Shown here piece after piece: positions 886 to 57,291 of a stretch of 64,000 nucleotides of DNA; within the stretch, counting starts at the first letter, position 1; every line of letters starts with the position of its first letter. The notes below the pieces were generated by a model that worked only from the letters and a program-made list of their open reading frames with translations, was not told where the DNA came from and searched no databases. The position numbers and the translations under genes are program-made. Source of the DNA: Eledone cirrhosa (taxonomy: Eukaryota); NCBI GenBank assembly GCA_964016885.1, contig OZ024743.1:16492001-16556000 (forward strand), read 5' to 3'.

Positions 886-1101
886 GAATGCTATGGTTGA
901 CGGAGGCTCGGTTCTGTAAGGTATTGTAAATTTTGAACGCTATAACAATTGTAAATTGTTTAAAACTTTAACGAACTTGTAGACAAAAACACCCTCCTCC
1001 TCGTGAGAGGCATCTTTCTGCCCGTTATTTGGCCCTTCGGGGTTAAATAACTGCTTATTGGGGTTTTGTGCCCAATATTTATTTTAAACAAAAAAAACAA
1101 C

Positions 1102-3218
1102 ATGGCTACGAAAAAGAATTTTCATAGGTCACTCCCACTTATCCGTCTTCTTCTTCCTCAATCATCACTACAGCAGAGAGAAGATTGTCTCTCTCCCTCC
1201 CTTCTTTAAATGTGTCTCTCTCCCTCCCTTCTCTTTCGCAAGCGACGACAGAAAAGAAAAGTCTCGTGCAAAGCGTGCAAGATTTCTCCACGACGACGAC
1301 GACAACGACGAAACAGGTGTGCGGGATACACGAAAACCTATTTCATTCGTCGGACGTCAGGAATAATAGCAGTAGCAGCCGTAATAACAACAGCAACAGT
1401 GACAATGAAAACAACAGTAGCAGCCGCAACAGCATCACCAGCAGCATAAACAACAACAGCATTAGCAGCAGCAACACCAACAACAACCACAGCAACAGCG
1501 GCGGAGGCAGTAGTCGTAGTACCTGCAGCGACAAAAAAAGTAACAGCAGCTCTGACGACAACAACAACAACAGCAGCAAAGAAAAACCAATCTCGTTTGC
1601 AAGTATCGCGAAGAACCTGGAAACAATCCTCATAACAAATGAGGAATTAGAGGAAGCGAAGAAGATGGTGACAAAGACTGGACACCGAGCAATCTGCAAG
1701 GCAGGGGGAAAATTTTTCGAAACCCAACAGCACTGTACGGTCACGTACCGTACAGTAAGTACAAAATCCCATAGTGTTGAAAGAGCCACAGAGGCTGAAA
1801 TACAAAAAGCCTTGGGGTTTGTGTGGCAGCGGAAAACGCACATCACCCGAGGCAAAAAATATGCCACCGTAGACGTACTTTTTGCCACACCCCAGGAGGC
1901 AAAGGCTCAATCCATAGTGACCCTAAGGAGCGAGGAAATGGTGTTGGTGCCCTCCTACTGCGGGCAAAAAATTGTGAGGGTCAAACTGACCCACGTCCCC
2001 CCCTCCCCCCCCCCCCCCGGGATGGCCCCTTCTTGGCTGGCCGCGTCCGTCCTCGTCGGAATCGAGGACAAAACAACTGTACTGCAAGTACAGAAAAAAG
2101 TAAGAGAAGATTGGGTCGGCACCTCCATTGAGATGTTAATCCAAACCAACCAGGAGTGCATCGAAGCTATCCCGGATGTGATAGACTTCGATAACGGCAC
2201 TCAACTGCCCATAAGTGTTGAGGGCAAACGCCCGAATTTCTTTCGCTGTGGATCGAAGACTCACCTCAGGGCCTTCTGCAACGAGAAGACCCTGAGAAAG
2301 GAGAAAACCCCCCTCCTTCCGAAACCGGTTCCACGGCTACCAGCAACAGGACAAGCGGCAACCAGGAACGATAGGTCCGTGGCACCCATACCTACGCCAC
2401 GGAAATCAAAAACAGCAGCAGCAGTAGAAATATTAACAACAACAACAGTAATACCAACTGCAGCTGCAACAGAGACTCCAGTGCAAACATCACCAACAAC
2501 AACAAGTGAAAGAGTGGAGCAGGTAACCCTCCCCGACCTCACATAATCAGACATGGAGTGTGAGGTGGGAGAGGGATGGCAAAAGGTCGTAAGAAGGCAC
2601 AAACGCAGAAGCAGCGCATCGTCGCCTTTGAAAAGGGAGGAAAAGAAATGAGAAAAGGGTAAAGTCTACTGCAAAGAGACTCACAGCAGCAATACCACTA
2701 ACACCATCACCACCCACACTAGAACCACCATCACCACCGGCGACAACCCCACCGCCAACAACACCTTCAACACCACTACCACAAGCACCAACATCGCGAA
2801 CACAACAACAAAACACACACACCCAGCAACAACGACAAAAATTAGCAGAACCACACCCCACCTCCAGAAAAACAAATGCACGGCAATAAATACACACAAC
2901 AAGAAACTAATGACTTACATAATTGAACACACAGACATTTCACAACACGACTACATAATATCAGCACCGATCAAAACGCCAACTAACATAAGACTGCTAA
3001 AAATAGCACAGAAAAAATACACAGACATTAAAACGAAATTCCCCAACGCGGTTGGTGATTTCAGGGACCTAGGAGGAACTATCAATCGAAGAGTATATTC
3101 GGACATACTCATAGAAGAGCCGACGACCAGCCGAAGGGACGATTCAACGGTCCCTTCACCAGACGATCAAGTGAAAAGGGATGTAAAAACCATCCCTCCT
3201 CTACGAAAAGTACGGTAA
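1102..3218 (+). pseudogene. ORF1 (gag-like) of copy A1, disrupted
   Basis: ATG at 1102; N/S-rich tract, central conserved domain, degraded knuckle (FFRCGSKTHLRAFC), T/P-rich tract; frameshifts and stops (e.g. TAA 2544-2546) relative to A2. Confidence 0.9.
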
Positions 3219-3253
3219 GTGGACTTTCCTATCTTTTCCACTCTATTTTAAAC

Positions 3254-6200
3254 ATGAACTCACTCAGAATAGGCAGCATAAATGCTGCTCAACGACCTCA
3301 GGTCACTAAACATAGATGTAGTGGCCATCAGCGAGACCAGAATCTCCGAAGGACGGGCCTTCGCACCGATCTTCGGCGGCTACGATGTGTACGCATCTCC
3401 CAGCCGTCCTGTATCGGGGGGAGGAGTTGCTGTGCTTTTTCGGAGAGGTTTGGATCTCGCCATACGGGCCATCTTCCTGGACCCAGAGGGTAAGCTGGTG
3501 GTGCTGGACGTGACCAGCGGAGACGGGCAAGCTTTCAGACTAGTGGCCGTCTATGCTCCAACAGGAGCAGGGCGGCCTGATTTCTTCCGGCGTCTGGAGA
3601 CCTTTCTTGGAACGTCCCGCTCTTTAGTGTTAGTGGGCGACTGGAACGGGATCTTAAATGCACGCTGGGACTGTGTGGGATTAGCGGATAGGGGTGGAGG
3701 GTGCAAGAACCTCACCAACCTACTCAGGTGTTTTGAACTGTCTCACAGGTACCGATTGGATTTCCCGAATGTGCCAATGTGGACTTGGACAAATCGCATA
3801 GGGTCATCCAGATCATATCTAGAAAGAGTATTTTGTAGGGAAATAGATAGGTCTAGCATAGGCTGTCCACAATTCAAGATAGTCAGCTACACGGACCACA
3901 AATTCGTGATCTGTGTGCTTGACTTAGATAGGCTTCATAGACGAGGACCCGGCTACTGGAAGCTAAATGCGTCCTTACCAGCGCGCAAGGCCTACAGAGA
4001 CTGGATTAGCGAACTAGTTAAGCGGGCGTTGACGGGGCCCATCGTCAACAACAAGTGGCGGTTTGCTCTGAAAAGAGCGATTAGAATAGAATCCATTAGG
4101 TTTAGTAAGGCTTTAGCAAATAGAGAAAAATAGGGCAGAGGGAGAACTAGTTAGAAAATTAGACGAGGCGCTTAGCAAAGGCATTGCGACCGACGTGCTT
4201 GCGGCGAAATTGGCCCTTGACCAATTCTTCAATGCAAAGCACGAAGGCTGCGTTGTCAGAGCAAGGGTGCGTGCTCTCAGACACGAGGTGACGAAAGCCG
4301 TTCAATGGGCCCGAGTGGCGGAGGCGCGTCGTGGCAACACAGCCACGATCCGGTCTTTAGTGGACCACGACGGGCGCATGCTACTCGATCCCGGGCAAAT
4401 GTGTGAAGCTTTTCAGCGACACTTCGCTCAGCTGTTCGGGGGCAGCGCTGGGCTGGGTCGAGGGATGGATTTTAGTGTCTACCTCGACGGACTGCCGCGG
4501 CTCTCGGCCACTGAGGCGAAGTTTTGCGAAAAGCCGATAACAGCCGCTGAAGTAAGGGAGGCAATGACTGGCTGCACAAGGGGTAAATCGCCTGGTTTGG
4601 ATGGTCTGCCCTATGAACTTTACGTACAGATGCCAGACTTGTTCGGAGGCCTCTTGGCGGACGTCTACTGCAGTTGACAACAGAACGGGAGAATTCCCAG
4701 TTCTGTGAGCCGAGGAGCGGTGGCACTGCTGAGAAAGAATCCGAACAAGGGGGATAACGCAGATAATTTCCGGCCCATAACTCTGCTAAACACAGAGTTC
4801 AAGATTTTGGCCATGGTGCTAGCAAAGAGGTTGGCGCTTGTCGTTGGTGGTCTGGTGAGAGGGGCGCAGACATGTGCCATTCCCGACTGATCCATACACG
4901 ACAACCTCCACCTCATGCGATACATCGTAGATAGGGTAGCTAGGGAACCTGGCACGGGTGGGTCCTTGATCAATTAAGATCAGTCGAAAGTGTTCGATAG
5001 GGTCGACCATCGTTACATAGCGGCAGTCCTGAGGGCGGCTGGCTTTGGGCCCGTCTTCAGAGGCTGGATCGCTGCCATGCACAGCGACATCTGCTCTGTG
5101 GTGAGAGTGAACGGTCACCTGTCGGAACCGTTCAACATCATGCGCTCGGTCCGCCAAGGATGCCCCCTCTCGTCCCTCTTGTACGTATTGACTCTCGAAC
5201 AATTACTGCACATACTGGAGACGTTGAGGGGCGTCCCGCGCGAACTAGGATGCGGAAGATCCGTGTCAGCATATGCGGACGATGACACCGTAGTGGTGTC
5301 GAACGCCAAACACATCGAGGCGATCGGCACTACACTAAGAGAATACGAAGCGGTGACAGGAGCAATGATCAACCAGGAAAAGTCAGTGGGCCTGCTGCTC
5401 GGCAACTGGAGAGGCAGGTCCATGCCGTCCAACAGCGTCGTCGGACGCTGGACGAGCGGACCGGTTAAATTGCTAGGGGTCTGGTTCGGTCCGGACCTCC
5501 AGACGGACAAGAACTGGGACGAGGTGACGAGCAGGGTGGCTTCTCTCACCCAGAAATGGGCGTAGAGGAAGCTATCCCTGAAAGGTCGAGCGGAGGTGGC
5601 TAACGCGTACATCGCGTCTGTCATCTCCTACCGCCTGACCGTCGTACCTTGTCGTAAGCCTCGCCTGACTGCGCTGGAGAGTTTGCTCTTTCGCTTTTTG
5701 TGGAAGGGACGCGCTCCGATGGTCAGGCGGTCCATCTGTTGTCAACACCCGCTACATGGAGGGCTGGGCATGCCGTGGCTGATGATGCGCAGGCACGCGC
5801 TCAGGCTACGACATCTCCACCTCTTCCTCGACGGTGATCACCGTTTGGTGGTCGCCGTTTGCTAGACACGTATTTCCCCAGCTAGTTTCCTTGACGGAGC
5901 TGCAGTCCTGGGTCAAGCGAGGACCGAGAGGGAGCGCCTGGAGACTGGAATGTCTTCAGGCGCTCACAGCCCTCGACCAATCGGGCAATGTGATCGGTGG
6001 AAACTCCACCTTGGCGTTCTATAGAGGATTAGTGGAGGGGAAGAGCGACGACGTACTTGGGGAAACTCTAGGCGTCGACGAAATTCAACTAGCCATTCTC
6101 TTAGGAAGAACTTTCGGGCCAGGGCCTATGGACAATTTCCAGAAATCTCTGGCCTGGCAGTGCTACCGAGGAGCCTTGCCAGTTCGGGATAAACTCTACA

Positions 6201-6642
6201 GGCATGGAGGTGCCGTCAGCCGGGCATGTCCGAGATGCGCGCAGGGCGACGAAACCGTCCTGCGCGCACTCGTCCAGTGTCCGAAAATTGCTGACTTGTG
6301 GGTTTATGTCGAACACCTGCTGTCGCGTTTAGGACGGTTCCGGCTATCATCTGAGTCCATCGTGAGGATTGCTCCGCCCTCCTCCTTTAGCCGGGAAGGG
6401 CAGGCAGTTTTTAACTGTCTGGTGGCCATGGCGAAAAGATAGTATGGTGGACACGTTTGAAAGGGCTGAAGACGAACACTTACCTCTTCGGTGATGCTCT
6501 GATTGACTTTTTCAAATTTCATTTGAAAAGGAAAATCAGAGTAGAGAGGGAAGTGCTCTCTTCCCAGCATTTTGTTGAAAGATTGGTGAGAGAAGCAAGA
6601 ATGGCCCGAGTGAATGGGCCTACTCTGAGTATATATCTGTAA
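3254..6642 (+). pseudogene. ORF2 (APE endonuclease + reverse transcriptase + C-terminal Cys/His zinc motif) of copy A1, disrupted
   Basis: ORF-track fragments 3282-4133, 4195-4677, 4990-5565, 5834-6442 and 6457-6642 match the intact ORF2 at 41892-45311 (GDWN, TDHK, SPGLDG, QGCPLS, YADD). Confidence 0.95.
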
Positions 6643-7132
6643 ATTAAAGGTGGACAACTGGGAGAGGGCACTTGCCTTGGTGGTCAGGGTCATTGTGGCT
6701 TTTTAATGGGCTTTCTCCACAAATCTCCCTCCGAAGTCTCAACCCTATTGGGGAATTTTTCATTGTTATTTTTTGTTACATCCTCTGTTTTTGTTTTTTA
6801 CACGCAGAAATGCCCATTTGTACCGTCCTGTATTGTCCTGCACTGTCCTTAATGTCTACTTTATGTAAACCCTTGTGGTTAATAAAGAAATCATTATTAT
6901 TATTATTATTATTATTGAATGCCATGGTTGACGGAGGCTCGGCTCTGTAAGGTATAGTAATTTTTAACCGTTAAAACAATTGTAAATTGTTTAAAACTTG
7001 AACGAAATTGTTGATAAAGACACCCTCCTCCTCGTGAGAGGGGTCTTTCTGTCCGTTATTTGGCCCTTCGGGGTTAAATAACCAGTTATTGGGGTTTTGT
7101 ACCCAAAATTTCATTTTAAACAAAAAAACAAC

Positions 7133-9229
7133 ATGGCTACGAAAAAGAAATTTCATACGTCACTCCCACTCATTCCGTCTTCTTCTTCCTCAATCATCAC
7201 TACAGCAGAGAGAAGATTGTCTCTCTCCCTCCCTTCTTTAAATGTGTCTCTCTCCCTCCCTTCTCTTTCGCAAGTGACGAAAGAAAAGAAAAGTCTCGTG
7301 CAAAGCGTGCAATGTTTCTCCACGACGACGGCGACAGCGACGAAACAGGTGTGCGGGAAATACGAAAACCCAGTTCATTCGTCTGACGTCAGGAATAATA
7401 GCAGTAGCAGCCGTAATAACAACAGCAACAGTGACAATGAAAACAACAGTAGCAGCCGCAACAGCATCACCAGCAGCATAAACAACAATAGCATTAGCAG
7501 CAGCAACACCAACAACAACCACAGCAACAGCGGCGGAGGCAGTAGTCGTAGTACCTGCAGCAACAACAAAAGTACCAGCAGCTCTGACAACAACAACAAC
7601 AGCAGAGAAAAACCAATCTCATTTGCAGGTATTGCGAAAAACTTGGAAACAATCCTCATAACAAATGAGGAATTAGAGGAAGCGAAGAAGATGGTGACAA
7701 AGAACGGACACCGAGCAATCTGCAAGGCAGCGAAAAATTGTTTCGAAACCCAAGAGCACTGTACGGTCACGTACCGTACAGTAAGTACAAAATCCCGTAG
7801 GGTGGAAAGAGCCACAGAGGCCCAAATACAAAAAGCCTTGGGGTCTGTGTGGCAGCGGAAAACGCACATCACCCGAGGCAAAAAATATGCCACCGTAGAC
7901 GTACTTTTTGCCACACCCCAGGAGGCAAAGGCCCAATCAGTAGTGACCCTAAGGAGCGAGGAAATGGTGTTGGTGCCCTCCTACTGTGGGCAAAAAATTG
8001 TGAGGGTCAAACTGACCCACGTCCCCCCCGGAATGACCCCTTCTTGGCTGGCCGCGTCTGTCCTCGTCGGAATCGAGGACAAAACAACTGTACTGCAAGT
8101 ACAGAAAAAAGTAAGAGAAGATTGGGTCGGCTCCTCCATTGAGATGCTAATCCAAACCAACCAGGAGTGCATCGAAGCTATCCCGGATGTGATAGACTTC
8201 GATAACGGCACTCAACTGCCCATAAGTGTTGAGGGCAAACGCCCGAAATGCTTTCACTGTGGATCGAAGACTCACCTCAGGGCCTTCTGCAACTAGAAGA
8301 CCCTGAGAAAGGAGAAAACCCCCCTCCTTCCGAATCCGGCTCCACGGCTACCAGCAACAGGACAAGCGGCAACCAGGAACGATAGGCCCGTGGCACCCAT
8401 ACCCACTCCACGGAAATCAAAAACAGCAGCAGCAGTGGAAATACTAACAACAACAACAGCAATACCAAATGCAGCTGCAACAGAGACTCCAGTGCAAACA
8501 TCACCAACAACAACAAGTGAAAGAGTGGAGTTGGTACCCCTCCCCGACCTCACAGAATCAGACATGGAGTGTGAGGTGGGAGAGAGACGGCAAAAGGTCG
8601 TAGGAAGGCACAAACGCAGAAGCAGCGCATCGTCGCCTTTGAAAAGGGAGGAAAGAAATGAGAAAAGGGTAAAGTCTACTGCAAAGAGACCCACAGCAGC
8701 AACAACACCAACACCATCACCACCCACACTAGCGCCACCATCACCACCGGCGACAACCCCACCGCCAACAACACCTTCAACACCACCACCACAAGCACCA
8801 ACATCGCAAACACAACAACAAAACACACACACCCAGCAACAACGACAAGAAAATAGCAGAACCACACCCCACCCCCAGAAAAACAAATGCACGGCAATAA
8901 ATACACACAACAAGAAACTAATGACTTACATAATTGAACACACAGACATTTCACAACAGGACTACATAATACCAGCACCAATCAAAAAGCCAACTAACAT
9001 AAGACTGCTAAAAATAGCACAGAAACAATACACAAATATTAAAACGAAATTCCCCAACGCAGTTGGTGATTTCAGGGACCTAGGAGGAACCATCAATCGA
9101 AGAGTATACTCAGACATTCTCTTAGAAGAGCCGACGACCAGCCGAAGGGACGATTCAACGGTCCCTTCACCAGACGATCAAGTGAAAAGGGATGTAAAAA
9201 CCATCCCTCCTCTACGAAAAGTACGGTAA
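7133..9229 (+). pseudogene. ORF1 of copy A2, about 698 codons with a single premature TAG at 8294-8296
   Basis: ORFs 7097-8296 and 8390-9229 are in the same frame; CCHC knuckle CFHCGSKTHLRAFC; A1 and A3 have GAG at the stop position. Confidence 0.92.
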
Positions 9230-9264
9230 GTGGTCTTTCCCATCTTTTCCACTCTATTTTAAAC

Positions 9265-12200
9265 ATGACCTCACTCAGAATAGGCAGCATAAATGCGCGT
9301 GGCTTGGGGTCGTCATGGAAGCAGGGTCACCTGCTCAACGACCTCAGGTCACTAAACATAGATGTAGCGGCCATCAGCGAGACCAGAATCTCCGAAGCAC
9401 GGGCCTTCGCACCGATCTTCGGCGGCTACGATGTGTACGCATCTCCCAGCCGTCCTGGATCCGGTGGAGGAGTTGCTGTACTTTTTCGGAGAGGATTGGA
9501 TCTCGCCATACGGGCCATCTTCCTGGACCCAGAGGGTAAGCTGGTGGTGCTGGACGTGACCAGCGGAGACGGGCAAGCTTTCAGGCTAGTGGCCGTCTAT
9601 GCCCCGACAGGAGCAGGGCGGCCTGATTTCTTCCGGCGTCTGGAGACCTTTCTTGGAACGTCCCGCTCTTTAGTGTTAGTGGGCGACTGGAACGGGATCT
9701 TAGATGCACGCTGGGACTGTGTGGGATTAGCGGATAGGGGTGGAGGGTGCAAGAGCCTCACCAACCTGCTCAGGCGTTTTGAACTGTCTGACAGGTACCG
9801 ATTGGATTTCCCGAATGTGCCAATGTGGACTTGGACAAACCGCATAGGGTCATCCAGATCATATCTAGATAGAGTATTTTGTAGGGAAATAGATAGGTCT
9901 AGCATAGGCTGTCCACAATTCAAGATAGTCAGCTACACGGACCACAAATTCGTGATCTGTGTGCTTGACTTAGATAGGCTTCATAGACGAGGACCCGGCT
10001 ACTGGAAGCTAAACGCGTCCTTACCAGCGCGCAAGGCCTACAGAGACCGGATTAGCGAACTAGTTAAGCGGGCGTTGACGGGGGCCATCGTCAACAACAA
10101 GTGGTGGTTTGCTCTGAAAAGAGCGATTAGAATAGAATCGATTAGATTTAGTAAGGCTTTAGCAATAGAGAAAAATAGAGCAGAGGGAGAACTAGTTAGA
10201 AAATTAGACGAGGCGCTTAGCAAAGGCATTGCGACCGACGTGCTTGCGGCGAAATTGGCCCTTGACCAATTCTTCAATGCAAAGCACGAAGGCTGCGTTG
10301 TCAGAGCAAGGGTGCGTGCTCTCAGACACGAGGGGACGAAAGCCGTTCAATGGGCCCGAGTGGCGGAGGCGCGTCGTGGCAACAAAGCCACGATCCGGTC
10401 TTTGGTGGACCACGACGGGCGCATGCTACTCGATCCCGGGCAAATGTGTGAAGCTTTTCAGCGACACTTCGCTCAGCTGTTCGGGGGCAGCGGTGGGCCG
10501 GGTAGAGGGATGGACTTTAGTGTCTACCTCGACGGACTGCCGCGGCTCTCGGCCACTGAGGCGAAGTGTTGCGAAAAGCCGATAACAGCCGCTGAAGTAA
10601 GGGAGGCAATGACTGGCTGCACAAGGGGTAAATCGCCTGGTTTGGATGGTCTGCCCTATGAACTTTACGTACAGATGCCAGACTTGTTCGGAGGCCTCTT
10701 GGCGGACGTCTACTGCAACTGGCAACAGAACGGGAGAATTCCCAGTTCTGTGAGCCGAGGAGCGGTGGCACTGCTGAGAAAGGATCCGAACAAGGGGGAT
10801 AACATAGAAAATTTCCGGCCCATAACTCTGCTAAACACAGAGTTTAAGATTTTGGCCAAGGTGCTAGCAAAGAGGTTGGCGCTTGTCGTTGGTGGTCTGG
10901 TGGGAGAGGCGCAGACATGCGCCATTCCCGACAGATCCATCCACGACAACCTCCACCTCATGCCATACATCGTAGAGAGGGTAGCTAGGGAACCTGGCAC
11001 GGGTGGGTCCTTGATCAATTTAGATCAGTCGAAAGCTTTCGATAGGGTCGACCATCGTTACCTAGCGGCAGTCCTGAGGGCGGCTGGCTTTGGGCCCGTC
11101 TTCAGAGGCTGGATCGCTGCCATGCACAGCGACATCTGCTCTGTGGTGAGAGTGAACGGTCACCTGTCGGAAACGTTCAATATCATGCGCTCGGTCCGCC
11201 AATGATGTCCCCTCTCGTCCCTCTTGTACGTATTGATACACGAGCCATTACTGCACAAACTGGTGACGTTGAGGTGTGTCCCCTGTACTAGGATGCGGAA
11301 GATCCGTGTCAGCATATGCGGACGATGTCACCGTAGTGGTGTCGAACACCAAACACATCGAGGCGATCGGCACTACACTAAGAGAATACGAAGCGGTGAC
11401 AGGAGCAATGATCAACCAGGAAAAGTCAGTGGGCCTGCAGCTCGGCACCTGGAGAGGCAGGTCCATGCCGTCCAACAGCGTCGTCGGACGCTGGACGGAC
11501 GGACCGGTTAAATTGCTAGGGGTCTGGTTCGGTCCGGACCTCCAGACGGACAAAAACTGGGACGAGGTGACGAGCAGGGTGGCTTCTCTCACCCAGAAAT
11601 GGGCCGAGAGGAAGCTATCCCTGAAAGGTCGAGCGGAGGTGGCTAACGCGTACATCGCGTCCGTCATCTGCTACCGCCTGGCCGTCGTACCTTGTCCTAA
11701 GCCTCGCCTGACTGTGCTGGAGCGTTTGCTCTTTCGCTTTTTGTGGAAGGGACGCGCTCCGATGGTCAGGCGGTCCATCTGTTGTCAACACCCGCTACGT
11801 GGAGGGCTGGGCATGCCGTGGCTGATGATGCGCAGGCACGCGCTCAGGCTACGACATCTCCACCTCTTCCTCGACGGTGATCAGGTGTGGTCGCCGTTTG
11901 CTAGACGCGTGTTTCCCCAGCTCGTTTCCTTGACGGAGCTGCAGTCCTGGGTCAAGCGAAGACCGAGAGGGAGCGCCTGGAGACTGGAATGTCTTCAGGC
12001 GCTCACAGCCCTCGACCAATCGGGCAATGTGATCGGTGGAAACTCCACCTCGGCGTTCTATAGAGGATTAGTGGAGGGGAAGAGCGACGACGTACTTGGG
12101 GAAACTCTAGGCGTCGACGAAAATCAACTAGCCAATCTCTTCGGAAGAACTTTCGGGCCAGGGCCTATGGACAACTTCCAGAAATCTCTGGCCTGGCAGT

Positions 12201-12682
12201 GCTACCGAGGAGCCTTGCCAGTTCGGGATAAACTCTACAGGCATGGAGGTGCCGTCAGCCGGGCATGTCCGAGATGCGCGCAGGGCGACGAAACCGTCCT
12301 GCACGCACTCGTCCAGTGTCCGAAAATTGCTGACTTGTGGGTTTATGTCGAACACCTGCTGTCGCGTTTAGGACGGATCCGGCTATCATCTGAGTCCATC
12401 GTGAGGATTGCCCCGCCCTCCTCCTTTAGCCGGGAAGGGCAGGCAGTTTTTATCTGCCTGGTGGCCATGGCGAAAGAGATAGTATGGTGGACACGTTTGA
12501 AAGGGCTGAAGACGAGCACTTACCTCTTCGGTGATGCTCTGATTGACTTTTTCAAATTTCATTTGAAAAGGAAAATCAGAGTAGAGAGGGAAGTGCTCTC
12601 TTCCCAGCATTTTGTTGAAAGATGGGTGAGAGAAGCAAGAATGGCCCGAGTGAATGGGCCTACTCTGCGCATATATCTGTAA
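9265..12682 (+). pseudogene. ORF2 (APE-RT-Zn) of copy A2, broken only by TGA 11203-11205 and a frameshift near 11285
   Basis: 646-aa and 468-aa ORFs are almost identical to the intact ORF2. Confidence 0.95.
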
Positions 12683-12930
12683 ATTAAAGGTGGAAAACTG
12701 GGAGAGGGCACTTGCCTTTGTGGTCAGGGTCATTGTGGCTTTTTACTGGGCTTTCTCCACAAATCTCCCTCCGAAGTCTCCCCCCTATTGGGGAATTTTT
12801 CATTGTTATTTTTTGTTACATCCTCTGTTTTTGTTTTTTACACGCAGAAATGCCCATTTGTACCGTCCTGCATTGTCCTGCACTGTCCTTAATGTCTACT
12901 TTATATAAACCCTTGTGGTTAATAAAGAAA

Positions 12931-12975
<45 letters not shown>

Positions 12976-13197
12976 TTATTATTGGCGACCTACGTAGTAA
13001 ATCGTATCATCGTAAGATTCGCAAAGTTTTGTTATTTTCAGTTGTTTAAAAATGCCATTCATGGAAAATTGTTATTGTTAACTGTATATAAGTGCACATA
13101 CATTGTTATCTGAAAAAGACACCCAAAAAGATTGGGGCCTTGAGCCCAAAACTTAAACTTTTATAATTATCAAACAAACATTTTTCTTTGAAAAATC

Positions 13198-15136
13198 ATG
13201 GCTGACTCAGAGTCACTCCTTTCTCACAAACTAAAACCTCACACCGAGACCACCATTGTAAATATTACTACGTTTGCCAACACTGAAATATAAACAGTAG
13301 CAATATTTTTAATTTGTCTCTGGCAGACATTCATTTCCCACCATTACCAATGACTGCAGATGTTAAAGCCGCCACCACCACCACCACCGCGACAACCACC
13401 ACCCTCACCACCACTGCGACAACAGAAACAAAAGAAAAAATAAATTAACTCGTGATATCGAAATGAATTCAACCAAAATGAACTCTTCCACACCGAACAC
13501 CACTGACGCCACCACCACCACAACTGAAACTAAAATTAATAATAACAAAAATAACGATAACAACAACAGCAACAATGACATTAAGAAAACCACCCTGATT
13601 TTGCCACAGTAGCAAAACAGTGCGAAGCATTTCAAGTAACTTAGGAGGAATTAGAAGAAACCAAAACAATAGTAAAGAAAGATGGGTACGGGGTCAGCCC
13701 CCCCCCACACCTAATAAAATGGAGTATCGGCGCCTATGCACCGTGTCCTATCTAACAATTAATATAAAATCGCGCCGATTGGAACTGGCATCCGAGTCTC
13801 AAATCCCAAATGCTTTGGGACATGTGTGGGCAAAAAACCCCACATCAGTCGTGGGCAGAAGTATGGAACCGTGGACGTGTTCTTTGAAACACCACAGGAG
13901 GCTAGAAAACACTCCATGGCCCCATTAAGAAGTGACGACTTCACACTCGTCCCAAGCTATTGTGGCCAGAGACTCGTAAAGATCAGCGTCACCCATGTTC
14001 CACCGACCCTGAAATTCCCTGGCTAATAGCTGCCGTCCTCGCCAGCATCGAAGCCAACACCAAGATAATCGAAATAGCGAAAGAAAAGCAGGAGAACTGG
14101 TCCGGATCTGGGATGGAGCTCCTGATCCAAGCGGACCAAAAAAGCATTGAGGAGATCCCAGAGGTAATAGACCTCACTGACGGCAGCCACCTCACCGTAA
14201 TTGTCGAGGGCAGAAGGCCTAGGTGTGTCGTTTGTGGTGAAGGAACCCACCTAAGGGCTTTCTGCCCTCAGGCTAAAAGGTTGAGGCCACCTCTCCTAAC
14301 CATCCCAGTGACTCAACCATCAACACCGCCAGCAGCAGAGATGGCAGCAACAACTGTAGCAGCAACAACAGAAGCAACTGTAACCACAACAACCCCAGCA
14401 AAAGTAGCAAAACCAACATCACCACCACCCAACGCGTCAGAACTAGCACCAGCGCCTACACCATCCACCACGCCACAACCAAAACTAACGCCTGTGGAGG
14501 ATCTTCCACTCCCCGGCCTATCACAACTGGAGACAGATTGTGACGACGAGGAGTGGTAAACGGTATCAGGAAAAAAGTAAAAAAGAACCCCAAAAGAAAA
14601 AAATTCTCTTCCTTCCCCTTCCAAAAACAAAATACAGAGGCAAACAAATATACTATCAAACAAAAAAGTTAGGACAGATATGCCACCATCCACACCAGCA
14701 TCATCAACCCCATCACCCCAAACACCAACACCATCACCATCATTAACCACAACACCACCATCACCTACAACACAAAAGTCACCAAAAAGCGAAACAGAAA
14801 CAAACCCACAACAAACACAAATAAAACAAAACAACCAAAACTATACACACTACACAGCATTAAATTTGAACAACCAATTATTACACTACATCCAACACAA
14901 CACCAGCATCACAGAAAAAAATACACAAAAACCCAAAAGTTCACACCAACTCCACAAAACAAACCACTCGCTTCATACAGAAAACGTACATGACACTAAA
15001 ACAAAAATTCCACAAAGAAATCGGAGACTTCCGACAAGCACTCTCCAGGAGGATTTATAAAGACATCCTTCCTGATGAGGCCACAAGCAGTGAAAATGAT
15101 GGAGAAACCGTCCTTCCTCTACGAGAAGGAAGGTAA
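13198..15136 (+). pseudogene. ORF1 of variant B, frameshifted
   Basis: ATG 13198; fragments 13826-14026, 13960-14559, 14680-15060; CCHC knuckle; ends AGG TAA, equivalent to CGG TAA in A. Confidence 0.85.
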
Positions 15137-15170
15137 GTGGTCTTTCCCATCTTTTCCACTACATTTCAAC

Positions 15171-18100
15171 ATGACCTCACTCAAAATAGGCAGCATAAAT
15201 GCGCGTGGCTTGGGACCGTCATGGAAGCAGGGCCACCTGCTCAACGACCTCAGATCACTAAACATATATGTAGTGGCCATCAGCGAGACCAGAATACGGA
15301 AGCACGGGCCTTCGCACCGATCTTTGGCTGCTACAATGTGTACGCATCTCCCAGCCGCCTGGGATCGGGGGGGGGGGCGTAGTTGCTGTGTACTTTCGGA
15401 GAGGTTTGGATATTGCCATACGGGCCATCTTCCTGGACACAGAAGGGAAGTTGGTGGTGCTGGAGGTGACCAGCGGAGACGGGCAAGCTTTCAGGCTAGT
15501 GGCCGTCTATGCTCCGACAGGAGCAGGGCGGCCTGATTTCTTCCGGCGTCTGGAGAACTTTCTTAGAACGTCCCGCTCTTTAGTGTTAGTGGGCGACTGG
15601 AACGGGATCTTAGATGCACGCTGGGACTGTGCGGGATTAGCGGATAGGGGAGGAGGGTGCAGGAGTCTCACCAACCTGCTCATGCGTTTTGAACTATCTG
15701 ACAGGTACCGATTGGATTTCCCGGATGTGCCAATGTGGACTTGGACAAATCGCATATGGTCATCCAGATCATATCTAGATAGAGTATTTTGTAGGGAAAT
15801 AGATAGGTCTAGCATAGGCTGTCCACAATTCAAGACAGTCAGCTACACGGACCACAAATTCGTGATCTGTGTGCTTGACTTAGATAGGCTTCGTAGACGA
15901 GGACCCGGCTACTGGAAGCTAAACGTCTCCTTACCAGCGCGCAAGGCCTACAGAGACCGGATTAGCGAACAAGTTAAGCGGGCGTTGACGGGGGCCATCG
16001 TCAACAACAAGTGCTGGTTTGCTCTGAAAAGAGCAATTAGAATAGAGTCCATTAGGTTTAGTAAGGCTGTAGCAATAGAGAAAAATAGAGCAGAATTAGT
16101 TAGAAAATTAGACGAGCCGCTTAGCATAGGCATCGCGACCGACGTACTTGCGGCGAAATTGGCCCTTCACCAATTCTTCAATGCAAAGCACGAAGGCTGC
16201 GTTGTCAGAGCTAGATTGCCTGCTCTCAGACACGAGGGGACAAAAGCCGTTCAATGGGCCCGAGTGGGGGAGGCGCGGCCTGGCAACAAAGCCACGATCC
16301 GGTCTTTGGTGGACCACGACGGGCGCATGCTACTCGATCCCTGGAAAATGTGTGAAGCTTTTCAGCGACACTTCGCACCGCTGTTCGGGGACAGCGGCGG
16401 GCCGGATCGAGAGATGGATTTTAGTGTCTACCTCGACGGACTGCCGCGGCTCTCGGCCACTGAGGCGGAGTGTTGCGAAAAGCCGATAACAGCCGCTGAA
16501 GTACGGGAGGCAATGACTGGCTGCATAACGGGTAAATCGCCTGGTTTGGATGATCTGCCCTATGGACTTTACGTACAGATGCCAGACTTGTTCAGAGGCT
16601 TCTTGTCGGACGTCTACTGCAACTGGCAACAGAACGGGAGAATTCCCAGCTCTGTGAGCCGAGGAGCGGTGGCGCTGCTGAGAAAGGATCCGAACAATGG
16701 GGATAATATAGATAATTTCAGGCCCATACTGTGCTATACACAGAGTTCAAGATTTTGGCCAAGTTGCTAGCAAAGAGGTTGGCGCTTGTCGTTGGTGGTG
16801 TGCGCCATTCCCGACAGATCCATCCACGACAACCTCCACCTCATGCGATACATCGTAGAGAGGGTAGCTATGGAACCTGGCACGGGTGGGTCCTTGATCA
16901 ATTTAGATCAGTCGAAAGCTTTCATTAGGGTCGACCATCGTTACATAGCGGCAGTCCTGAGGGCGGCTGGCTTTGGGCCCGTCTTCAGAGGCTGGATCGC
17001 TGCCATGCACAGCGACATCTGCTCTGTGGTGAGAGTGAACGGTCACCTTTCGGAACCGTTCAACATCATGCGCTCGGTCCGCCAATGATGTCCCCTCTCG
17101 TCCCTCTTGTACGTATTGATACACGAGCCATTACTGCACAAACTGGTGACGTTGAGGTGTGTCCCCTGTACTAGGATGCGGAAGATCCGTGTCAGCATAT
17201 GCGGACGATGTCACCGTAGTGGTGTCGAACGCCCAACAAATAGAGGAGATCGGCACTACAATAAGAGAATACGAAGCTGTGACAGGAGCAATGATCAACC
17301 AGGAAAAGTCAGTGGGCCTGCAGCTCGGCACCTGGAGAGGCAGGTCCATGCCGTCCAACAGAGTCGTCGGGCGCTGGAGGGACGGACCGGTTAATTTGCT
17401 AGGGGTCTGTCAGACGGACAAACACTGGGACGAGGTGACGAGCAGATTTGCTCCTCTCACCCATAAATGGGCGGAGAGTAAGCTATCCCTGAAAGGTCGA
17501 GCGGAGGTGGCTAACACGTACATCGCGTCCGTCATCTACTACCGGCTGACCGTTATAACTTGTCCTAAGCCCCGCCTGACTGCACTGGAGCGTTTGCTCT
17601 TTCGCTTTTTGTGGAAGGCACGCGCTCCTATGGTCAGGCGGTCCATCTGCTGTCAACACCCGCTATGTGGAGGGCTGGGCATGCCGTGGCTAATGATGCC
17701 CAGACACGCGCTCAGGCTACGACATCTCCACCTCTTCCTCGACGGGTATCAGGTGTGGTCGCCGTTTTCTAGACACGTCTTTCCCCAGAGCTGCAGTCCT
17801 GGGTCAAGCGAAGACCGAGAGGGAGCGCTTGGAGACTGGAATGTCTTCAGGCGCTCACAGCCCTCGACTAATCGGGCAATGTGATCGGTGGAAACTCCAC
17901 ATTGGCGTTCTATAGAGGATTAGTGGAGGGGAAGAGCGACGATGCACTTGGGGAAACTCTAGGCGTCGACGAAAATCAACTAGCCAATCTCTTCGGAAGG
18001 ACTTTCGGTCCTGGGCCTATGGACAACTTCCAGAAATCCCTGGCCTGGCAGTGCTACCGAGCAGCTTTGCCAGTTCGGGATAAACTCTACAGGCATGGAG

Positions 18101-18534
18101 GTGCCTTCACCCGGGCATGTCCGAGATGCGCGCAGGGCGACGAAACCGTCCTGCACGCACTCGTCCAGTGTCCGAGCATGCTGACTTGTGGGTTTATGTC
18201 GAAGACCTGCTGTCATGTGTAGGACGGCTCCAGCTATCAGCTGAGTCCATCGTGAGGATTTGCCGGCCCTCTCCCTGTACCCGGGAAGGGCAGGCATTTT
18301 TTATTTGTCTGGTGGCCATGGCGAAAGAGATAGTATGGTGGACACGTTTGAAAGGGCTGAAGACGAGCACTTACCACTTCGGTGATGCCCTTATTAAGTT
18401 TTTAAAATTTCATTTGAAAAGGAAAATCAGGGTAGAGGGGGAAGTGCTCTCTTCCCAGCATTTTGTTGAAAGATGGGTGAGAGAAGCAATTATGGCCCGA
18501 GTGAATGGGTCACACTCTGAGTTTTTGTCTGTAA
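15171..18534 (+). pseudogene. ORF2 (APE-RT-Zn) of variant B, multiple frameshifts
   Basis: MTSLKIGSINARG start; fragments 15388-16770, 16786-17088, 17159-17884, 17881-18222, 18117-18539. Confidence 0.92.
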
Positions 18535-19068
18535 ATTAAAGGTGGAAAACTGGGAGAGGGCACTTTCCCTGGTGGTCAGGGACACTGTGGCCTTTTAATG
18601 GGCTTTCCACAAATGTCCCTCGGAAGTCTCCCTCCTATTGGGAAATTTTTCATTGTTATTTTTTATTACATCCTCTGTTTTTTTTACACGCAGAAATGCC
18701 CATTTGTAGCATTCTGTATTGTCCTGTACTGCCCTTAATGTCTACTTTACGTAAACCATTGTGGTTAACAAAGAAAGCATTATTATTAATATTATTGTTA
18801 TTATTATTATTATCTTGTCATATTATTCTTTTAATATTGATTTAGGCATTAAATAACAATTTAATTTTTATTAAACCAAAATCTTAGTCACCATCTTGTT
18901 ACGGCAAAAACAATAACAGTGTATGTACGTTTAATGATTAGAATCTACACAACCTATCCATCAAGAATTTTCTCAATTCACATTTCTCTTATAAAAAAGA
19001 GAATTTCATTTTACCAATCGATTTTTTATTTCTTGTTATTATGGAATTATCTTATTATCTCTCTCTTC

Positions 19069-21037: not shown

Positions 21038-21128
21038 TGTTTCTTCTATTGGCACAAGGCCAGCAATTACCCAGTAGATTACTGGTACTTTATTTTATCG
21101 ACCCTGTAAGGATGAAAGGCAAAGTTAA
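21038..21128 (-). mobile_element. 5'-truncated SINE inserted in the hAT subterminal region
   Basis: Matches the 3' half of the SINEs at 33505 and 53607; flanked by a 19-bp TSD CTAAGCTA(T/G)TTGAGATAAT (21019-21037 and 21129-21147). Confidence 0.9.
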
Positions 21129-33504: not shown

Positions 33505-33696
33505 AATGAGATTGCAGTATCGGTGGAGGGTCGGACGCCATGCGTTGCAGCAAAGAGTTACGTCCCTTTATGGTCTGAGTTCACATCCAGCTGAGGTTAA
33601 CTTTGCCTTTCATTCTTACGGGGTCGATAAGATAACGTACCAGTAATACACTGGGGTAATTGCTGGCCTTGTGCTAAAAGTAGAAACATTTATTTA
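33505..33696 (+). mobile_element. tRNA-derived SINE, near full length
   Basis: A-box-like TTGCAGTATCGG, B-box-like GAGTTCACATCC, body TTTGCCTTTCAT..GGGGTCGATAA..GTACCAG, end GGCCTTGTGCTAAAAGTAGAAAC; homologous to 53607-53775. Confidence 0.85.
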
Positions 33697-35623
33697 CAGG
33701 ACGATTTGAATTGTTTCATGAACACACCTTCACTTATAGGTTCCTTCTGGTAATGAGTCATTTTCCATCGAGTTCGTTTCTTCTAACTTGTGAGTGAGTT
33801 ATTATGAAATTCGTCTCCAACCATATATATACATCCATATGCACATACATAAATGCATAAATACTTTACCCCAATTACAGATTCATTGAAAATGATCATA
33901 GACACTCCCCTACTTTCTCTTGAAAAATATAAATAAACTGTTGACATCGGATTATGTACTGGAAGGCAACGTTTGATATAATCTGACAAAACTATTATTA
34001 CATACATATTAAATGTAAAGAGTTACATTTTCCTCAACTTGTTTTTATAGGATTTCAACTAAATCTCGTAATATAGATGAGGTGTAGAGTACGATAATTA
34101 AAATGATTCATGGATGTGATAAATATCATTAGCAGAATGTATTAACAGGATCGTAATCTCCTCCTAGTTTTTTCAATATATCATATTGGTGGCTATATAC
34201 AAAACCCTTAGTCATAAGAAAGGTTTTATTAGCAAATGTCTTAATCTCACTTTGACCTTCCACAAATAAATCTTGCACATATAGATATAACCTTGTACAT
34301 ATTTAAAATTGTACATTTGCTTTATAAGTGTTTCTAATTTAGGCATGAAGCCATTAGATTTGAGGGATGGGAAAGTAACTAAATGATATTTGATTTTACT
34401 GACATCGGAATGATGAAAGGCAAATTGAACCCATAATTCAATAAGCTGGAGCAAATGCTGATAAACATGATTTCGACGCCCTAACGACTCTTCAAATGAT
34501 CACCCGAGAGTGACATTATAATTATGTCGAATAAAGTAGTATTTAGTTATGAATATTTAGTGAAATTAAATCGTATTAAAATCTAACATTTTAGCTCATC
34601 CTTCATATTCAAATATGTGCAAATCTTAAACATTTGTTTCCTTTTTAAATGAAAGTTTACACAAAGCTAGGGCATCATACATTTTCACGTATTGATTGAT
34701 TAGACATATGAGATCTATAAGAAAACTTGATTTCCAATTCTACTGCAAAGAACATTATTCTCCCTGTACAGCGTTCGACACTTGTTGATTTCACACAATA
34801 AACAACAAATGAACTGACCATAAAAATCGACTACTTAATTCCGTTTATTTATGAGTTCATTTTAAAGTATGCATTAGTAAAAATAACACATAACATGTAA
34901 TAAATAATGTTGCCAGGAAACCTTCATAAATCGCAACTATAAGGAACATGCAAAGAAATCAAAAAGAGAAACAAAATGAAAGAATCGCAGTCATAAAATA
35001 TTAGATAATAAAAAAGTAATTGACAGAACTGAAAAGACTGCTATCGAAATAAAATGTCCAAACAAAATTATTAATTCAATAGCACATTTTGTCAACAATA
35101 AAATCAATAGTTTTACAACATGGGAGGGCTGAGACCTCCATAGTTTCTCGATATTTTTACGAAACGTCAAACAATCTAATCACGTGAAATCGACCATAAT
35201 GAAAATATAAAATACCTCATAGACAAATAGTCTGATATCTTCTGCACAAACAAATATGTCCACCAAGTCTGAGAATCTATGGGAATTCAATGCCTCGGCC
35301 CGAAAATATTAATCAATAATAATAATAATAATAATAACAATAACGATTTCATTTATTAGCCACAAGGGCCGACATGTAGGGGACAGTACAAAGACAGGGA
35401 CAGTGGGGGTTTACAATAAGGTCAAGTAAAATTGCACAATGTCAAGACTAATTTAACAAAGAAAATATAAAAATATAAAATAAACTATGTATAAATATAA
35501 CAAAATAAATTCCCCGATAGGGGGTAGAAGACCCTGGGGTGACTCGGGTACCCCACCAATCCTGAACCACCCTGCGCTTCTAGGGCACCGAGAGAGAGCA
35601 CCCCTCTCCTCAAGTTAGCTAGC

Positions 35624-38600
35624 CTATAGGCGCATGGTCAGAGTAGGCCCATTCACACGAGCCATTCTCGTCACATTCACACCCACCTTTTAGCAAATCT
35701 ACTGGGGGGAGGGGGGGGGGCATCATTTCTCTCTCCACCCTCACCTTCCTTTCTATGTGAAACTTGAAGAAGTTGATGAAGGGTTGGCCGAAGAGGAAAG
35801 TGTCTGTCTTCAGACCTTTTAACCTGGTCCACCATATAACCTCTTTCGCAACTGCCACCAGAGAGAGGAAAATGTACTGCTCTTCCTGACCTAAGGAGGG
35901 CGGTGGATCGATCTTCACTATGGACTCGGCCGATAGCCGGATTCGTTCCACACGCGACAGTAGCTGTTCGACATAACTCCACAAGTCAGTAATGCACGGA
36001 CATTGGACAAGTGCGTGCAGAACGATTTCGTCGTTCTGTGCGTATCTTGGGCAGGCCCGTCTGACAGCACTTCCGTGCCTGTAGAGTTTATCCCGAACCG
36101 GCAGTGCCTCCCTGTAGCACTACCAGGCGAGGGATTTCTGGAAACTGTCCATCGTTCCCGGCTCAAAAGTCCTCCGGTACAGACTAGTCAGTTCGACTTC
36201 GTCGAGGCCCAAAGCTTCTCCGAGGGCGTCATCGCAATTTCCCACCACTAATCCTCTATAGAACTCGAGAGTGGAAGTTCCACTGATCGCATTGCCCGCT
36301 TGGTAGAGGGCAGTGAGTGTCTGGCAACATTCCAGGTGCCAGTCACCCAGTCTCGGTCTCTTCTTGACCCAGGACTTCAGCTCAGTCAAAGAAATGAGCT
36401 GGGGAAAGGTCCGTCTGATAAACGGCGACCACACCTGTTCACCGTTGAGGCAGAATATCTGGAGATGCCGCAGCCTCAACGCATGTCTGCGCATCATCAG
36501 CCACGGCATGCCCACCCCTCCGCGTAGAGGGTGTTGGCAGCAGATGGACCGCCTCACCAACGGAACTTGTCGTCTCCACAAGAATTTGAAGAGGAGCCGT
36601 TCCAACTTGACGAGGCGCGGACGGGGGCAAGGGAGGACGGTCAGGCGGTAGTAGATGACGGACGCGATGTACGCATTCGCCACCTCCGCGCGACCTTTTA
36701 GTTATAGCTTCCTCCCAGCCCATTTTTGGGAGAGACTCTGCCCGTTACCTCGTCCCAACTCTTTTCCACCTGGAGGTCTTGTCCGAACCGAACCCCGAGC
36801 AACTTTACCGGTCCGTCCGTCCAGCGCCCCACGACGCTGTTCGACGGCATGGGCTTGCCTCTCCAGGTTCCCAGCTGCAAGCCCACCGACTTTTCCGGGT
36901 TAAGTTTGGCTCCTGTCAACCTTTCATATTCCTTCAATAAGGTGCCGACCACCTCGATTTCTGAGGTGTTCGAAACCATCACGGTGACGTCGTCCGCATA
37001 AGCCGACATCGCCTTTCCACGTCCCGGTTCGAGCGGGATGCCCTGCAACAGCTCCAGCTTCCGCACTAAAGGCTCGAGAGTCAATACGTACAGAAGGGAA
37101 GAGAGAGGGCATCTTTGACAAACCGATCGGGAGAGCCGAAATGGTCCCGAGAGGTGGCCATTAACCTTGACCACCGAGCGTGTGCCGCTGTGCATTGCAG
37201 CGATCCAGCTTCTGAAGACAGGGCCGAAGCCAGCTGCTTTGAGTACAAACTCCAGATACCGATGGTCGACACTATCGAATGCTTTCGATTGATCTAAATT
37301 GATCAGTGCCCCACCGAAGCCAGGTTTACACCCTACCCTCTCTATGATGTATCGCATGAGGTGGAGATTGACGTGTATGGACCTGGCTGGGATTGCGCAA
37401 GATTGCGCCTCCCCAACCAAATCCTCGACGACAAGCGCCAATCTCTTTGCTAACACCTTGGCCAAAATCTTAAACTCTGTGTTGAGCAGCGTTATGGGCC
37501 TGAAGTTGTCTAATGTATCCCTATTTTTCTCGTCTTTCCTTATCCGCGTCACCACTCCCCTGCTCACAGAACTGGGAATACTCCCATTCTGCTGCCAGTT
37601 GCAGTAAAGTGCTTCGAGGAGTTCGGAGAAGAAGTCTGGCATATTTACGTAAAGCTCTGGGCAGGCCATCCAAACCTGGTGACTTACGCCTTATGCAGCC
37701 GACAAGGGCGTCTTGAATGTTGGCTGAAGTAATCGGTCTTTCGCACCGCTCAGCGTCGACCGTCGAGATGCGCGGCAAGCCGTCAAGGTAGGTACTGACA
37801 TCCGCTAATCTCTCTGACTCGCCACTCTCCCCGAACAACCGAGCAAAGTGCTGGCGAAATGCCTCACACATCAGCTTGGAATCGCTTATCTCGTGTCCGT
37901 CTCGGTCCGCCAAGGACCGAATTGTGGTTTTATTACCACGCTGCGCCTCCGCCACGCGGGCCCATCGAACAGCTTTGGTTCCCTCGTTTCTCAGCGCACG
38001 CGCTTTAGCTCTGACAATGCAACCTTCGTGTTTCGCATTGAAGAAATGGTCTAATGCCATGCTCGTCGCCGCTAGCACGTCAGTTCCGATACCACTACAA
38101 ATAGCCTCGTCTAACTTATCTACCAGCTCCCCCTCCTTTCTATTTTTCTCTAACGCTAGTCCTTTGCTGAACTCTAACGATGTTACTCTAATCTCTCTTT
38201 GAGAGCCCCCCACCATCTGTTGTTGATGATCCACCCTGTCAACTTTTGCTTAACTAAATTGTTGACTCGGGCCCTGTAAGCCTTACGTGCCGGAAATGAC
38301 ATGTTCAGCTTCCAGTAACCCGGTCCTAACCTACGCCTTTTATCTTGGTCAATCGTACAGATCACAAATGTGTGATCTGAATAGGCGACCGTTTTAAAAA
38401 GTGGGCAGCCCACACTCTTTCTATCTATTTTCTTAATGAAGATCCTGTCTATATACGATCTAGATGACCCCATTCGGTTGGTCCATGTCCATACTGGCAC
38501 ATTGCGGACATATAGTCGATATCTTTCAGACAGTTGGAACTGGCTGAGTAGGTGCTTGAGGCTTTTGCACAACCGCGCTCCTATCGACTACTCCCACACA

Positions 38601-38917
38601 ATCCCAGCGTGCGTCTAAGATGCCATTCCGGTCCCCCGCTAACAGTAAAGGGCGAGACGTACCCAGAAAGGACTCCAGGCGCCTAAAGAATTCCGGTCGT
38701 CCGGCCCCACCTTCCATTCCCGGTCTGCTAACAGATGCTAAGATCTGATAGTCGTCGAAAACGGGGTTTAGTGTGCGCGTGTCGAAAATTCTGGTCTCGC
38801 TGACGGCAATCACATCCATTTCCAGCGACCTGACCTAAGGTCGTTGAGCAGGCGACCCTGTTTCCAGGGTGACCCCAGGCCGCGAACATTTAAACTTCCT
38901 CCTCTTAATATGACCAT
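35624..38917 (-). pseudogene. ORF2 (APE-RT-Zn) of family C, frameshifted
   Basis: MVILRGGSLNVRG start; fragments 38526-38819, 38183-38572, 37521-38234, 36698-37669 (DQSKAFD, YADD), 36120-36683, 35619-35984. Confidence 0.92.
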
Positions 38918-38946
38918 ATTGGTAAGCTAAGAGAGAGAGGGAAGGT

Positions 38947-40946: not shown

Positions 40947-41173
40947 AATTTGTTGGGGGGTGGGGAGGCGATTTTTTTTCGAAGTTTTTTAAAAATAAAT
41001 CTGAATATTTGGGCTTAAAGCCCGAATATTGAGAGGTATCCCGCTCTTTAAATCAAGATGTGTACCTTAAGTTTCGTTAACGACAAGAAAATACAAAAAA
41101 TGACACTTTAAACATCTTAAAGTTACGAAACATTTCCCCTGCAGATTTGTACTGTCTTCACACATGTGCAGCC

Positions 41174-41588: not shown

Positions 41589-41631
<43 letters not shown>

Positions 41632-41891
41632 TTTCTTTATTAACCACAAGGGTTTACATAAAGTAGACATTAAGGACAGTGCAGGACAATGCAGGACGGT
41701 ACAAATGGGCATTTCTGCGTGTAAAAAAACAAAAACAGAGGATGTAACAAAAATAACAATGAAAATAACAATGAAAAATTCCCCAATAAGGGGGAGACTT
41801 CGGAGGGACATTTGTGGAGAAAGCCCAGTAAAAAGCCACAATGACCCTGACCACCAAGGCAAGTGCCCTCTCCCAGTTTTCCACCTTTAGT

Positions 41892-45311: not shown

Positions 45312-45346
45312 GTTTAAAATAGAGTGGAAAAGATGGGAAAGACCAC

Positions 45347-47649: not shown

Positions 47650-47698
<49 letters not shown>

Positions 47699-56787: not shown

Positions 56788-57291
<504 letters not shown>

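Follow-up and report, generated by a model that had tools for sequence, protein, structure and literature searches.

A 3′ hairpin motif common to Tx1-type LINEs and an abundant SINE in Eledone cirrhosa, and its possible part in SINE copying

A 64,000-nucleotide stretch of Eledone cirrhosa DNA (assembly GCA_964016885.1, contig OZ024743.1, positions 16,492,001 to 16,556,000 of the forward strand), here called the window, is occupied by two head-to-tail arrays of long interspersed nuclear elements (LINEs) of about 6 kb with (ATT)n at the joints, and the 3.0-Gb genome around it, in 1,796 contigs, served as the search space. All the Tx1-type LINE ends in the window are built as stem, CTTGT loop, stem, AATAAA and (ATT)n, and the end of a short interspersed nuclear element (SINE) lying among them reads GGC-CTTGT-GCC, a spacer and ATT. 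This common 3′ motif, and the possibility that the LINEs supply the enzyme that copies the SINE, is the subject considered here.

The first LINE, of a family termed A, is full length with broken open reading frames (ORFs) (886..6892, +). The hairpin central to this report, AACC-CTTGT-GGTT (6868..6880, +), is followed in it by an AATAAA signal and AGAAATC spacer (6881..6892, +), the whole end reading on from the hairpin as AATAAAGAAATC(ATT)n, and its (ATT)n tail (6893..6916, +) doubles as the target of a second family A copy placed head to tail with it (6917..12932, +; hairpin 12908-12920, tail 12933-12983). Next comes an element, B (12984..18778, +), whose 5′ untranslated region (UTR) and ORF1 are unlike those of A while its ORF2 and 3′ UTR are A-like, with 90-92% identity across both. 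It has one hairpin in its 5′ UTR (13135-13147) and one at its 3′ end (18754-18766), the latter with an ATTGT loop that looks like decay, a rare variant. The first-pass annotation of the window had counted B as a family of its own for the 3′ end, which its A-like 3′ half does not bear out, and since that half is A-like the independent LINE ends in the window are two, A and C. The foreign 5′ UTR and ORF1 of B (12984-15088), joined to an A-like ORF2, suggest an exchange of ORF1 or else faster change of it. Family C, 72-75% identical to A, lies on the other strand (35345..41172, −; hairpin GGCC-CTTGT-GGCT at 35370-35358). Beyond it a B-type 5′ UTR and ORF1 start are fused to an A-type 3′ end (41194..41572, −; 3′ hairpin 41218-41206, 5′ UTR hairpin GGGC-CTTGT-GCCC at 41431-41419), a fusion rejected as a family as its internally deleted junction is single-copy. 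A further family A copy (41630..47649, −; hairpin 41654-41642) has an open ORF1 with a CCHC knuckle and an open ORF2 (41892..45506, −; 1204 amino acids stop to stop, with APE endonuclease, reverse transcriptase (RT) and zf-RVT), and a family A-related copy (47698..53585, −; hairpin 47722-47710) sits in the ATT tail of a SINE. Full-length family A starts number 2,505 genome-wide.

The SINE, 183 nt long and the most abundant SINE of the genome, is represented in the window by a young copy (53607..53772, −; hairpin GGC-CTTGT-GCC at 53630-53620, spacer TAAAGTAGAAACA, ATT tail 53606-53586), an older copy (33518..33689, +; hairpin GGC-CTTGT-GCT at 33665-33675) and a 5′-truncated one (21038..21128, −; hairpin TGGC-CTTGT-GCCA at 21062-21050). 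The truncated copy is flanked by the target duplication outside repeat sequence that had been ascribed to it, 19 nt starting ATTA with one mismatch (21147-21129 against 21037-21019). The hairpins quoted in the first-pass annotation are likewise all present (A 6868-6880 and B 18754 on the forward strand, C 35370 on the reverse, and SINE 53630 and 21062 on the reverse and 33665 on the forward strand), and so is the CCTTGTG-N8-AGAAA-N2-ATTATT spacing in A and in the SINE at 53607. Genome-wide the SINE motif has 237,228 matches, and a long form with the spacer TAAATCAGAAACC and its close variants has 5,956; subfamilies differ by an altered spacer and deleted upstream sequence, with GGCCTTGTGCC and AGAAAC retained. 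The element is short, dispersed and of high copy number, with a repeat tail and with target duplications in 95 of 183 copies, and at its head TGGCAGTATCGG and GAGTTCAAATCC, spotted by eye, resemble an A box and a B box. ARAGORN and Rfam gave no tRNA or Rfam match to the window, and Rfam run on the family A 5′ UTR and on locus L010 gave weak matches only, under the gathering scores. The SINE body probably resembles that of octopus SINEs, OK/OR1/OR2 included. The evenly spaced loci surveyed, 1 Mb in all, contain SINE and Tx1 copies that are 95-100% identical to the reference sequences.

As to the class of the LINEs, the 1204-amino-acid ORF2 matches PF03372, PF00078 and PF13966, that is an APE endonuclease, an RT and a C-terminal zinc finger. 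One named homologue is among its seven matches, the TX1 149-kDa protein at 32% identity, and human L1 ORF2p is its nearest chain of known structure (E 1e-52). In an RT tree 13 rows from the genome and P0001 form a clade (100/99) within a group (100/98) that contains P0004, named Transposon TX1 149 kDa protein, and the window and genome Tx1-type RTs group with L1/Tx1 apart from CR1, RTE and R4; as the tree holds no L1 or Xenopus Tx1 reference, the call of Tx1 over L1 proper, which depends on one source name (32%) and the ORF1 type, is tentative. A CCHC zinc knuckle in ORF1 is a Tx1 feature, and the ORF1s of A, B and C have one of the form C-x2-C-x4-H-x4-C. A second Tx1 lineage, with 50-62% identity to the ATT type in the ORF2 C-terminus, has (ATCT)n in its tails and flanks (L120, L164, L166, L152, L105, L190) and apparently targets (ATCT)n repeats. 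RTE, R4/Dong, CR1 and L1-Tx1, all met here, are listed as active in Octopus vulgaris in the available part of PMC13282606.

The motif extends well beyond the window. CCTTGTGD-N13-16-(ATT)4 has 13,805 genome matches against 21 for the reversed control. A family outside the window, D, has the stem AGCC/GGCC, and the (ATCT)n-tailed lineage retains the hairpin as TGCC-CTNGT-GGCA or GGCT, with 2,084 exact ends in one subgroup. The earlier description of a conserved loop with covarying stems stood for the stems, compared between families, but not wholly for the loop, since A or G takes the middle position in 95 of the first 100 ends listed for one (ATCT)n-tailed subgroup. Copies in which the first loop base is not C number 228, against 6,476 with C, the two search patterns being slightly different. 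Between TGCC-CTTGT-GGCT of the (ATCT)n lineage and TGGC-CTTGT-GCCT of the SINE there is a single C-G to G-C swap. The Tx1 3′ UTR has a second hairpin, CCCC-TATT-GGGG (window about 6743-6754, and L120, L105 and L152; CCTC-TATT-GAGG in one subgroup), which was not seen in the SINE. Nine matches to the Tx1 end in a metagenome scan, none beside an RT, were judged chance, and a search of sequencing runs listed no RNA run as a carrier. Contigs from three runs yielded no usable variants between species; as they also missed a known T/A variant just after the SINE stem, their lack of variants over the hairpin was given no weight.

Which LINE end most resembles that of the SINE was assessed with LINEs from 100 evenly spaced 10-kb loci (the 1 Mb above, whose loci bear L numbers), supplemented by family and protein searches that scored best candidates only; rare families with tails outside the survey are L334, L293 and L297. 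The 12 non-Tx1 ends obtained, two CR1, one RTE-X, three RTE, four R4/Dong, one L2-like and one I-group, all lack the motif. Anchored at the tail and compared over 22 nt with four SINE variants, the 16 Tx1 ends have 10-18 identities and the 12 others 5-12. The best match is an (ATCT)n-lineage end, L164 (17-18/22), with family A at 14-16/22, and so the top sequence match to the SINE is with Tx1 families outside the window and not with A. A profile made from the 16 Tx1 ends only gives the SINE ends 11.4-11.9 bits and the 12 other LINE ends −11 to −33. Among 1.77 million unmasked background positions, 17 attain 10 bits or more (9.6e-6), and 7 of the 17 are further Tx1 ends. Local alignment with the youngest SINE, its significance set by 400 shuffles, is significant for 8 of the 16 Tx1 ends and none of the 12 others. 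The abundant CR1, with 8,043 exact ends that have an ATT tail and a hairpin of their own, matches the SINE at 6-8/22 and −12.9 bits. Among the families sampled there is thus no better match from RTE, CR1 or L2, the finding that had earlier been named as telling against a Tx1 partnership. GCCTTGTGC..AATAAA has 36 genome matches, and the 30 that were read comprise 27 SINEs, one of them (L250) with a Tx1-C-like end, three unrelated sequences and no LINE. The SINE 3′ end appears homologous to the Tx1 3′ end, by a likeness that is short yet specific when anchored at the tail. In the same survey an abundant RTE-X-like LINE was encountered whose RT region contains a cysteine-rich insert and whose tail is (GAT)n (L093, L100, L129, L169).

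Covariation was scored over 20 ends, 16 Tx1 and 4 SINE, each a single copy related to the others. The four-pair stem is 86% paired over this set, with changes on both sides at three of the four pairs, and RNAalifold recovers the inner three pairs. The score is 0.386 against 0.133 for shuffled rows (reached in 0 of 500) and 0.10 or less for slid controls, and with the Tx1 ends alone 0.267 against 0.119 (1 of 500), counts that are not probabilities as the rows are related. In predicted folds of six Tx1 3′ UTRs the pentaloop has a probability of 0.17-0.98. Pairing of the stem is possible in all the SINE variants.

Insertion footprints were scored for every class by one rule, an exact duplication of at least 8 nt beside a copy at least 88% identical to its reference and with a visible junction. 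Duplications flank 95 of 183 SINE, 18 of 26 Tx1 and 7 of 31 CR1 copies, and they begin at the start of the tail in 75, 13 and 2 of these respectively, the null from displaced junctions being 3-7%. Both tail-start CR1 cases belong to a variant with a 113-nt internal duplication; when the seven rows of that variant and two interrupted by SINEs are set aside, duplications remain in 2 of 22 CR1 copies and tail-start ones in none. The first four bases are ATTA in 58 of 66 SINE cases and 5 of 6 Tx1 cases outside repeats. Such SINE targets read (C/T)^ATTA, as do the Tx1 ones, with duplications of 8-20 nt (L003, L208, L216, L221). Tx1 also has a preference for ATT-rich left flanks and for nesting. The footprint is common to the SINE and Tx1 and not to CR1, and the strictness of target choice differs. 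Tx1 copies nest in the ATT tails of other Tx1 elements and of SINEs (window 53586-53606, −; L102, L122, L069, L081), and R4/Dong elements receive antisense insertions of Tx1 and of the SINE in their (AAT)n tails.

As both the end motif and the insertion footprint are common to the two, the SINE likely uses the Tx1 copying enzyme, and we regard Tx1 as quite probably its mobilizer. With somewhat less assurance, though still on the favorable side of even, we suggest that the ORF2 protein (ORF2p) of the ATT-type Tx1 copies the SINE in trans by recognizing the predicted 3′ hairpin. The SINE end, as stem, CUNGU loop, stem, 12-13 nt and simple-repeat tail, would have been acquired from an ancestral Tx1. 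That Tx1 ORF2 has an endonuclease and an RT, and that young copies are present in thousands, is the step which the data provide directly. ORF2p may bind the 3′ hairpin together with the flanking AGAAA; to judge by the footprints, the endonuclease would nick (C/T)^ATTA and the freed DNA end pair with the AUU tail and prime reverse transcription, and a second-strand cut some 8-24 nt away would leave a duplication that starts at the tail. The SINE would have kept the hairpin and AGAAAC and dropped AATAAA, for which an RNA polymerase III transcript would have no need. A conjecture on the annealing step is that with its short AUU tail the SINE can use dispersed ATTA, and that long-tailed LINE RNAs favor (ATT)n arrays. 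More tentatively, and a little short of an even chance, these elements would be a stringent LINE of the L1 group (Tx1) in an animal, its ORF2p reading a CUNGU pentaloop held constant through a switch of target between (ATT)n and (ATCT)n, the other end of its RNA marked by a related hairpin before ORF1, and a SINE with a 22-nt mimic of the 3′ hairpin being among the most abundant repeats.

Several observations weigh against recognition of the hairpin in the SINE and, to a degree, against the kinship of the ends. The main weakness is that the pentaloop has a probability of 0.01-0.12 in seven of eight full-length short SINE RNAs (0.74 in the other), because GGCCUUGUGC pairs upstream in those seven; a pattern search gave no full-length long-form SINEs, and that form was folded as an end fragment only. 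The partnership proposed in the first-pass annotation accordingly fares well as regards the mobilizer, for which end likeness and footprint speak, and less well as regards the SINE hairpin. The 3′ stem-loop is conserved in Tx1 LINEs, where its recognition is plausible in view of the covariation, and the case for the same in the SINE is weak. Within the Tx1-only set the two inner pairs are invariant, and 5 of the 16 ends have a broken outer pair. A covariance model of the kind that had been suggested, built from the Tx1 ends and run unanchored, gives the SINE ends 10-17 bits and E 0.14-10 and so does not find them significantly, because the SINE is without AATAAA. Local alignment of family A is not significant with any SINE variant (p 0.09-0.20), and 1 of the 48 non-Tx1 comparisons, a Dong end with one SINE variant, is significant. 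The stretch common to LINE and SINE is only about 22-24 nt; published pairs have 50-100 nt in common, going by the portion of PMC3747384 available. The 26 Tx1 copies behind the footprint are a small sample picked mostly by tail patterns, and tails of at least four ATT stand to very short ones as 6,476:199 in Tx1 and 12,121:9,024 in the SINE, a far weaker leaning of the SINE to long (ATT)n.

The low predicted probability of the pentaloop in SINE RNA invites the alternative, unlikely in our estimate though the strongest of those considered, that what Tx1 recognizes in mobilizing the SINE is its AUU tail together with a short motif of primary sequence, the SINE hairpin being a relic of descent. 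The near invariance of the inner stem and GTG would suit this, as would the closest solved relative being human L1 ORF2p, of relaxed type. Yet the SINE differs from Tx1 at pair 2 on both sides with pairing kept, and the ATT-tailed CR1 copies do not have the Tx1 footprint, so an AUU tail alone brings no visible recruitment of Tx1, keeping in mind that cis preference could account for this. CR1, with its ATT tail, own hairpin and insertion sites as dispersed as those of the SINE, is itself the obvious candidate if the partner were another LINE, the other possibility being a rare or extinct family unsampled in a LINE survey that is incomplete, with a few rare families lacking a readable tail. We consider a partner of either kind improbable, given the mismatch of the CR1 end and the scarcity of CR1 tail-start duplications noted above, and ends that all differ in RTE-X, RTE, R4/Dong, the second CR1, the L2-like and the I-group elements.

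A complication of another sort is a conserved hairpin shortly before ORF1 in most of the Tx1 5′ UTR types read, with a GGGY/RCCC stem and compensatory changes (window 1061-1073, 7092-7104, 13135-13147 and 41431-41419 (−); L080, L087, L089, L127, L211, L286). The B-type 5′ UTR, in which this hairpin is GGGC-CTTGT-GCCC, contains GGCCTTGTGCC exactly, then AAA..AAAC and TTATTATTAT, in 585 exact copies, and its hairpin matches the SINE at 14-17/22 and 10.2 bits, no less closely than the 3′ ends, which also counts against the 3′-end derivation. The SINE end could then have come from the Tx1 5′ UTR, or its likeness to the 3′ end be convergent, and 5′ LINE parts within SINEs have been described for RTE and Vingi (PMC5786205, in the section available). 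Across Tx1 families, however, the loop is variable (TTTT, TTTAA, TTTGT, CTTGT, CTACA, TCCCT), so the CTTGT match may be incidental, in which event a likeness of this degree can arise twice; AGAAA is absent from the 5′ hairpin, and the motif in the SINE is in 3′-end register, ahead of the tail. We hold such an origin to be very improbable, and derivation from either end ties the SINE to Tx1. Capture of a SINE tail by the B 5′ UTR is unsupported, related 5′ UTR hairpins carrying other loops.

Copying of the SINE by Tx1 through a 3′ hairpin would have its nearest precedents in UnaL2/UnaSINE of eel and ZfL2-1/ZfL2-2 of zebrafish, where, as here, a stem-loop with a variable stem and a steadier loop precedes a short-repeat tail in both LINE and SINE; those pairs belong to the L2 clade, for which stringent recognition has been demonstrated with binding and assay data, whereas the present case is one of L1/Tx1, a 3-4 bp stem and about 22 nt, argued from sequence (PMC4176376, available text). 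Plant and algal L1-group pairs, LINE1-1_ZM with ZmSINE2/3 and L1-1_CR with SINEX-3_CR, also have a covarying 3′ hairpin deduced from sequence, but with 50-80 nt in common and poly(A)-ended LINEs (PMC3472496 and PMC3747384, in the parts available). For the crocodilian SINEU, Tx1-Mar was argued from target choice to be the mobilizer; SINEU ends in poly(A), and that study found no LINE with the SINEU-1 3′ terminus, in contrast to the tail motif and footprint in common here, and the Tx1-type Kibi and Koshi insert in (TC)n and (TTC)n, as compared with (ATT)n, (ATCT)n and head-to-tail nesting here (PMC4494074, as far as its text was available). OK/OR1/OR2 and the MetaSINEs are described, in what was available of PMC4824008, with a tRNA-like head, A and B boxes, a central domain and a tail that has no assigned partner, an architecture that the present SINE, with its putative boxes, may share. 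Table 1 of PMC3747384, in the part available, has no Tx1 pair and no mollusc pair and gives L1 tails in only three SINEs; the literature searched, with Repbase, Dfam and subscription papers outside the search, gave neither a Tx1/SINE pair with a common 3′ tail nor a partner for any octopus SINE.

An open proposal from the plant and algal pairs is that structured 3′-end recognition was ancestral in the L1 group and later relaxed to poly(A) (PMC3472496, available part). An animal Tx1 with an open ORF2, natural variants of stem and loop and a partner SINE would make that proposal directly testable, in a system comparable with the solved human L1 ORF2p structures. If the Tx1 assignment is right, a mobilizer would be named for a SINE of more than 230,000 copies; in Octopus vulgaris SINEs make up 11.6% of the genome, the majority of the active ones being unclassified (PMC13282606, available part).

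Some further features of the locus merit mention. In the family A 5′ UTR (window 7022-7083) a 12-bp UUCG hairpin is accompanied by CCTCCTCGTGAG, a stretch resembling the L3 loop of hepatitis delta virus (HDV)-type ribozymes, and Rfam gave no match for an HDV-type ribozyme in this 5′ UTR. A 37-bp minisatellite lies within a local duplication (window 55486-55684 and 56139-56284). At 57279-61132 a 1.07-kb inverted repeat surrounds reverse-strand ORFs (58518-60107) that match GIY-YIG only weakly (E 0.011), and this is probably a Penelope-like element.
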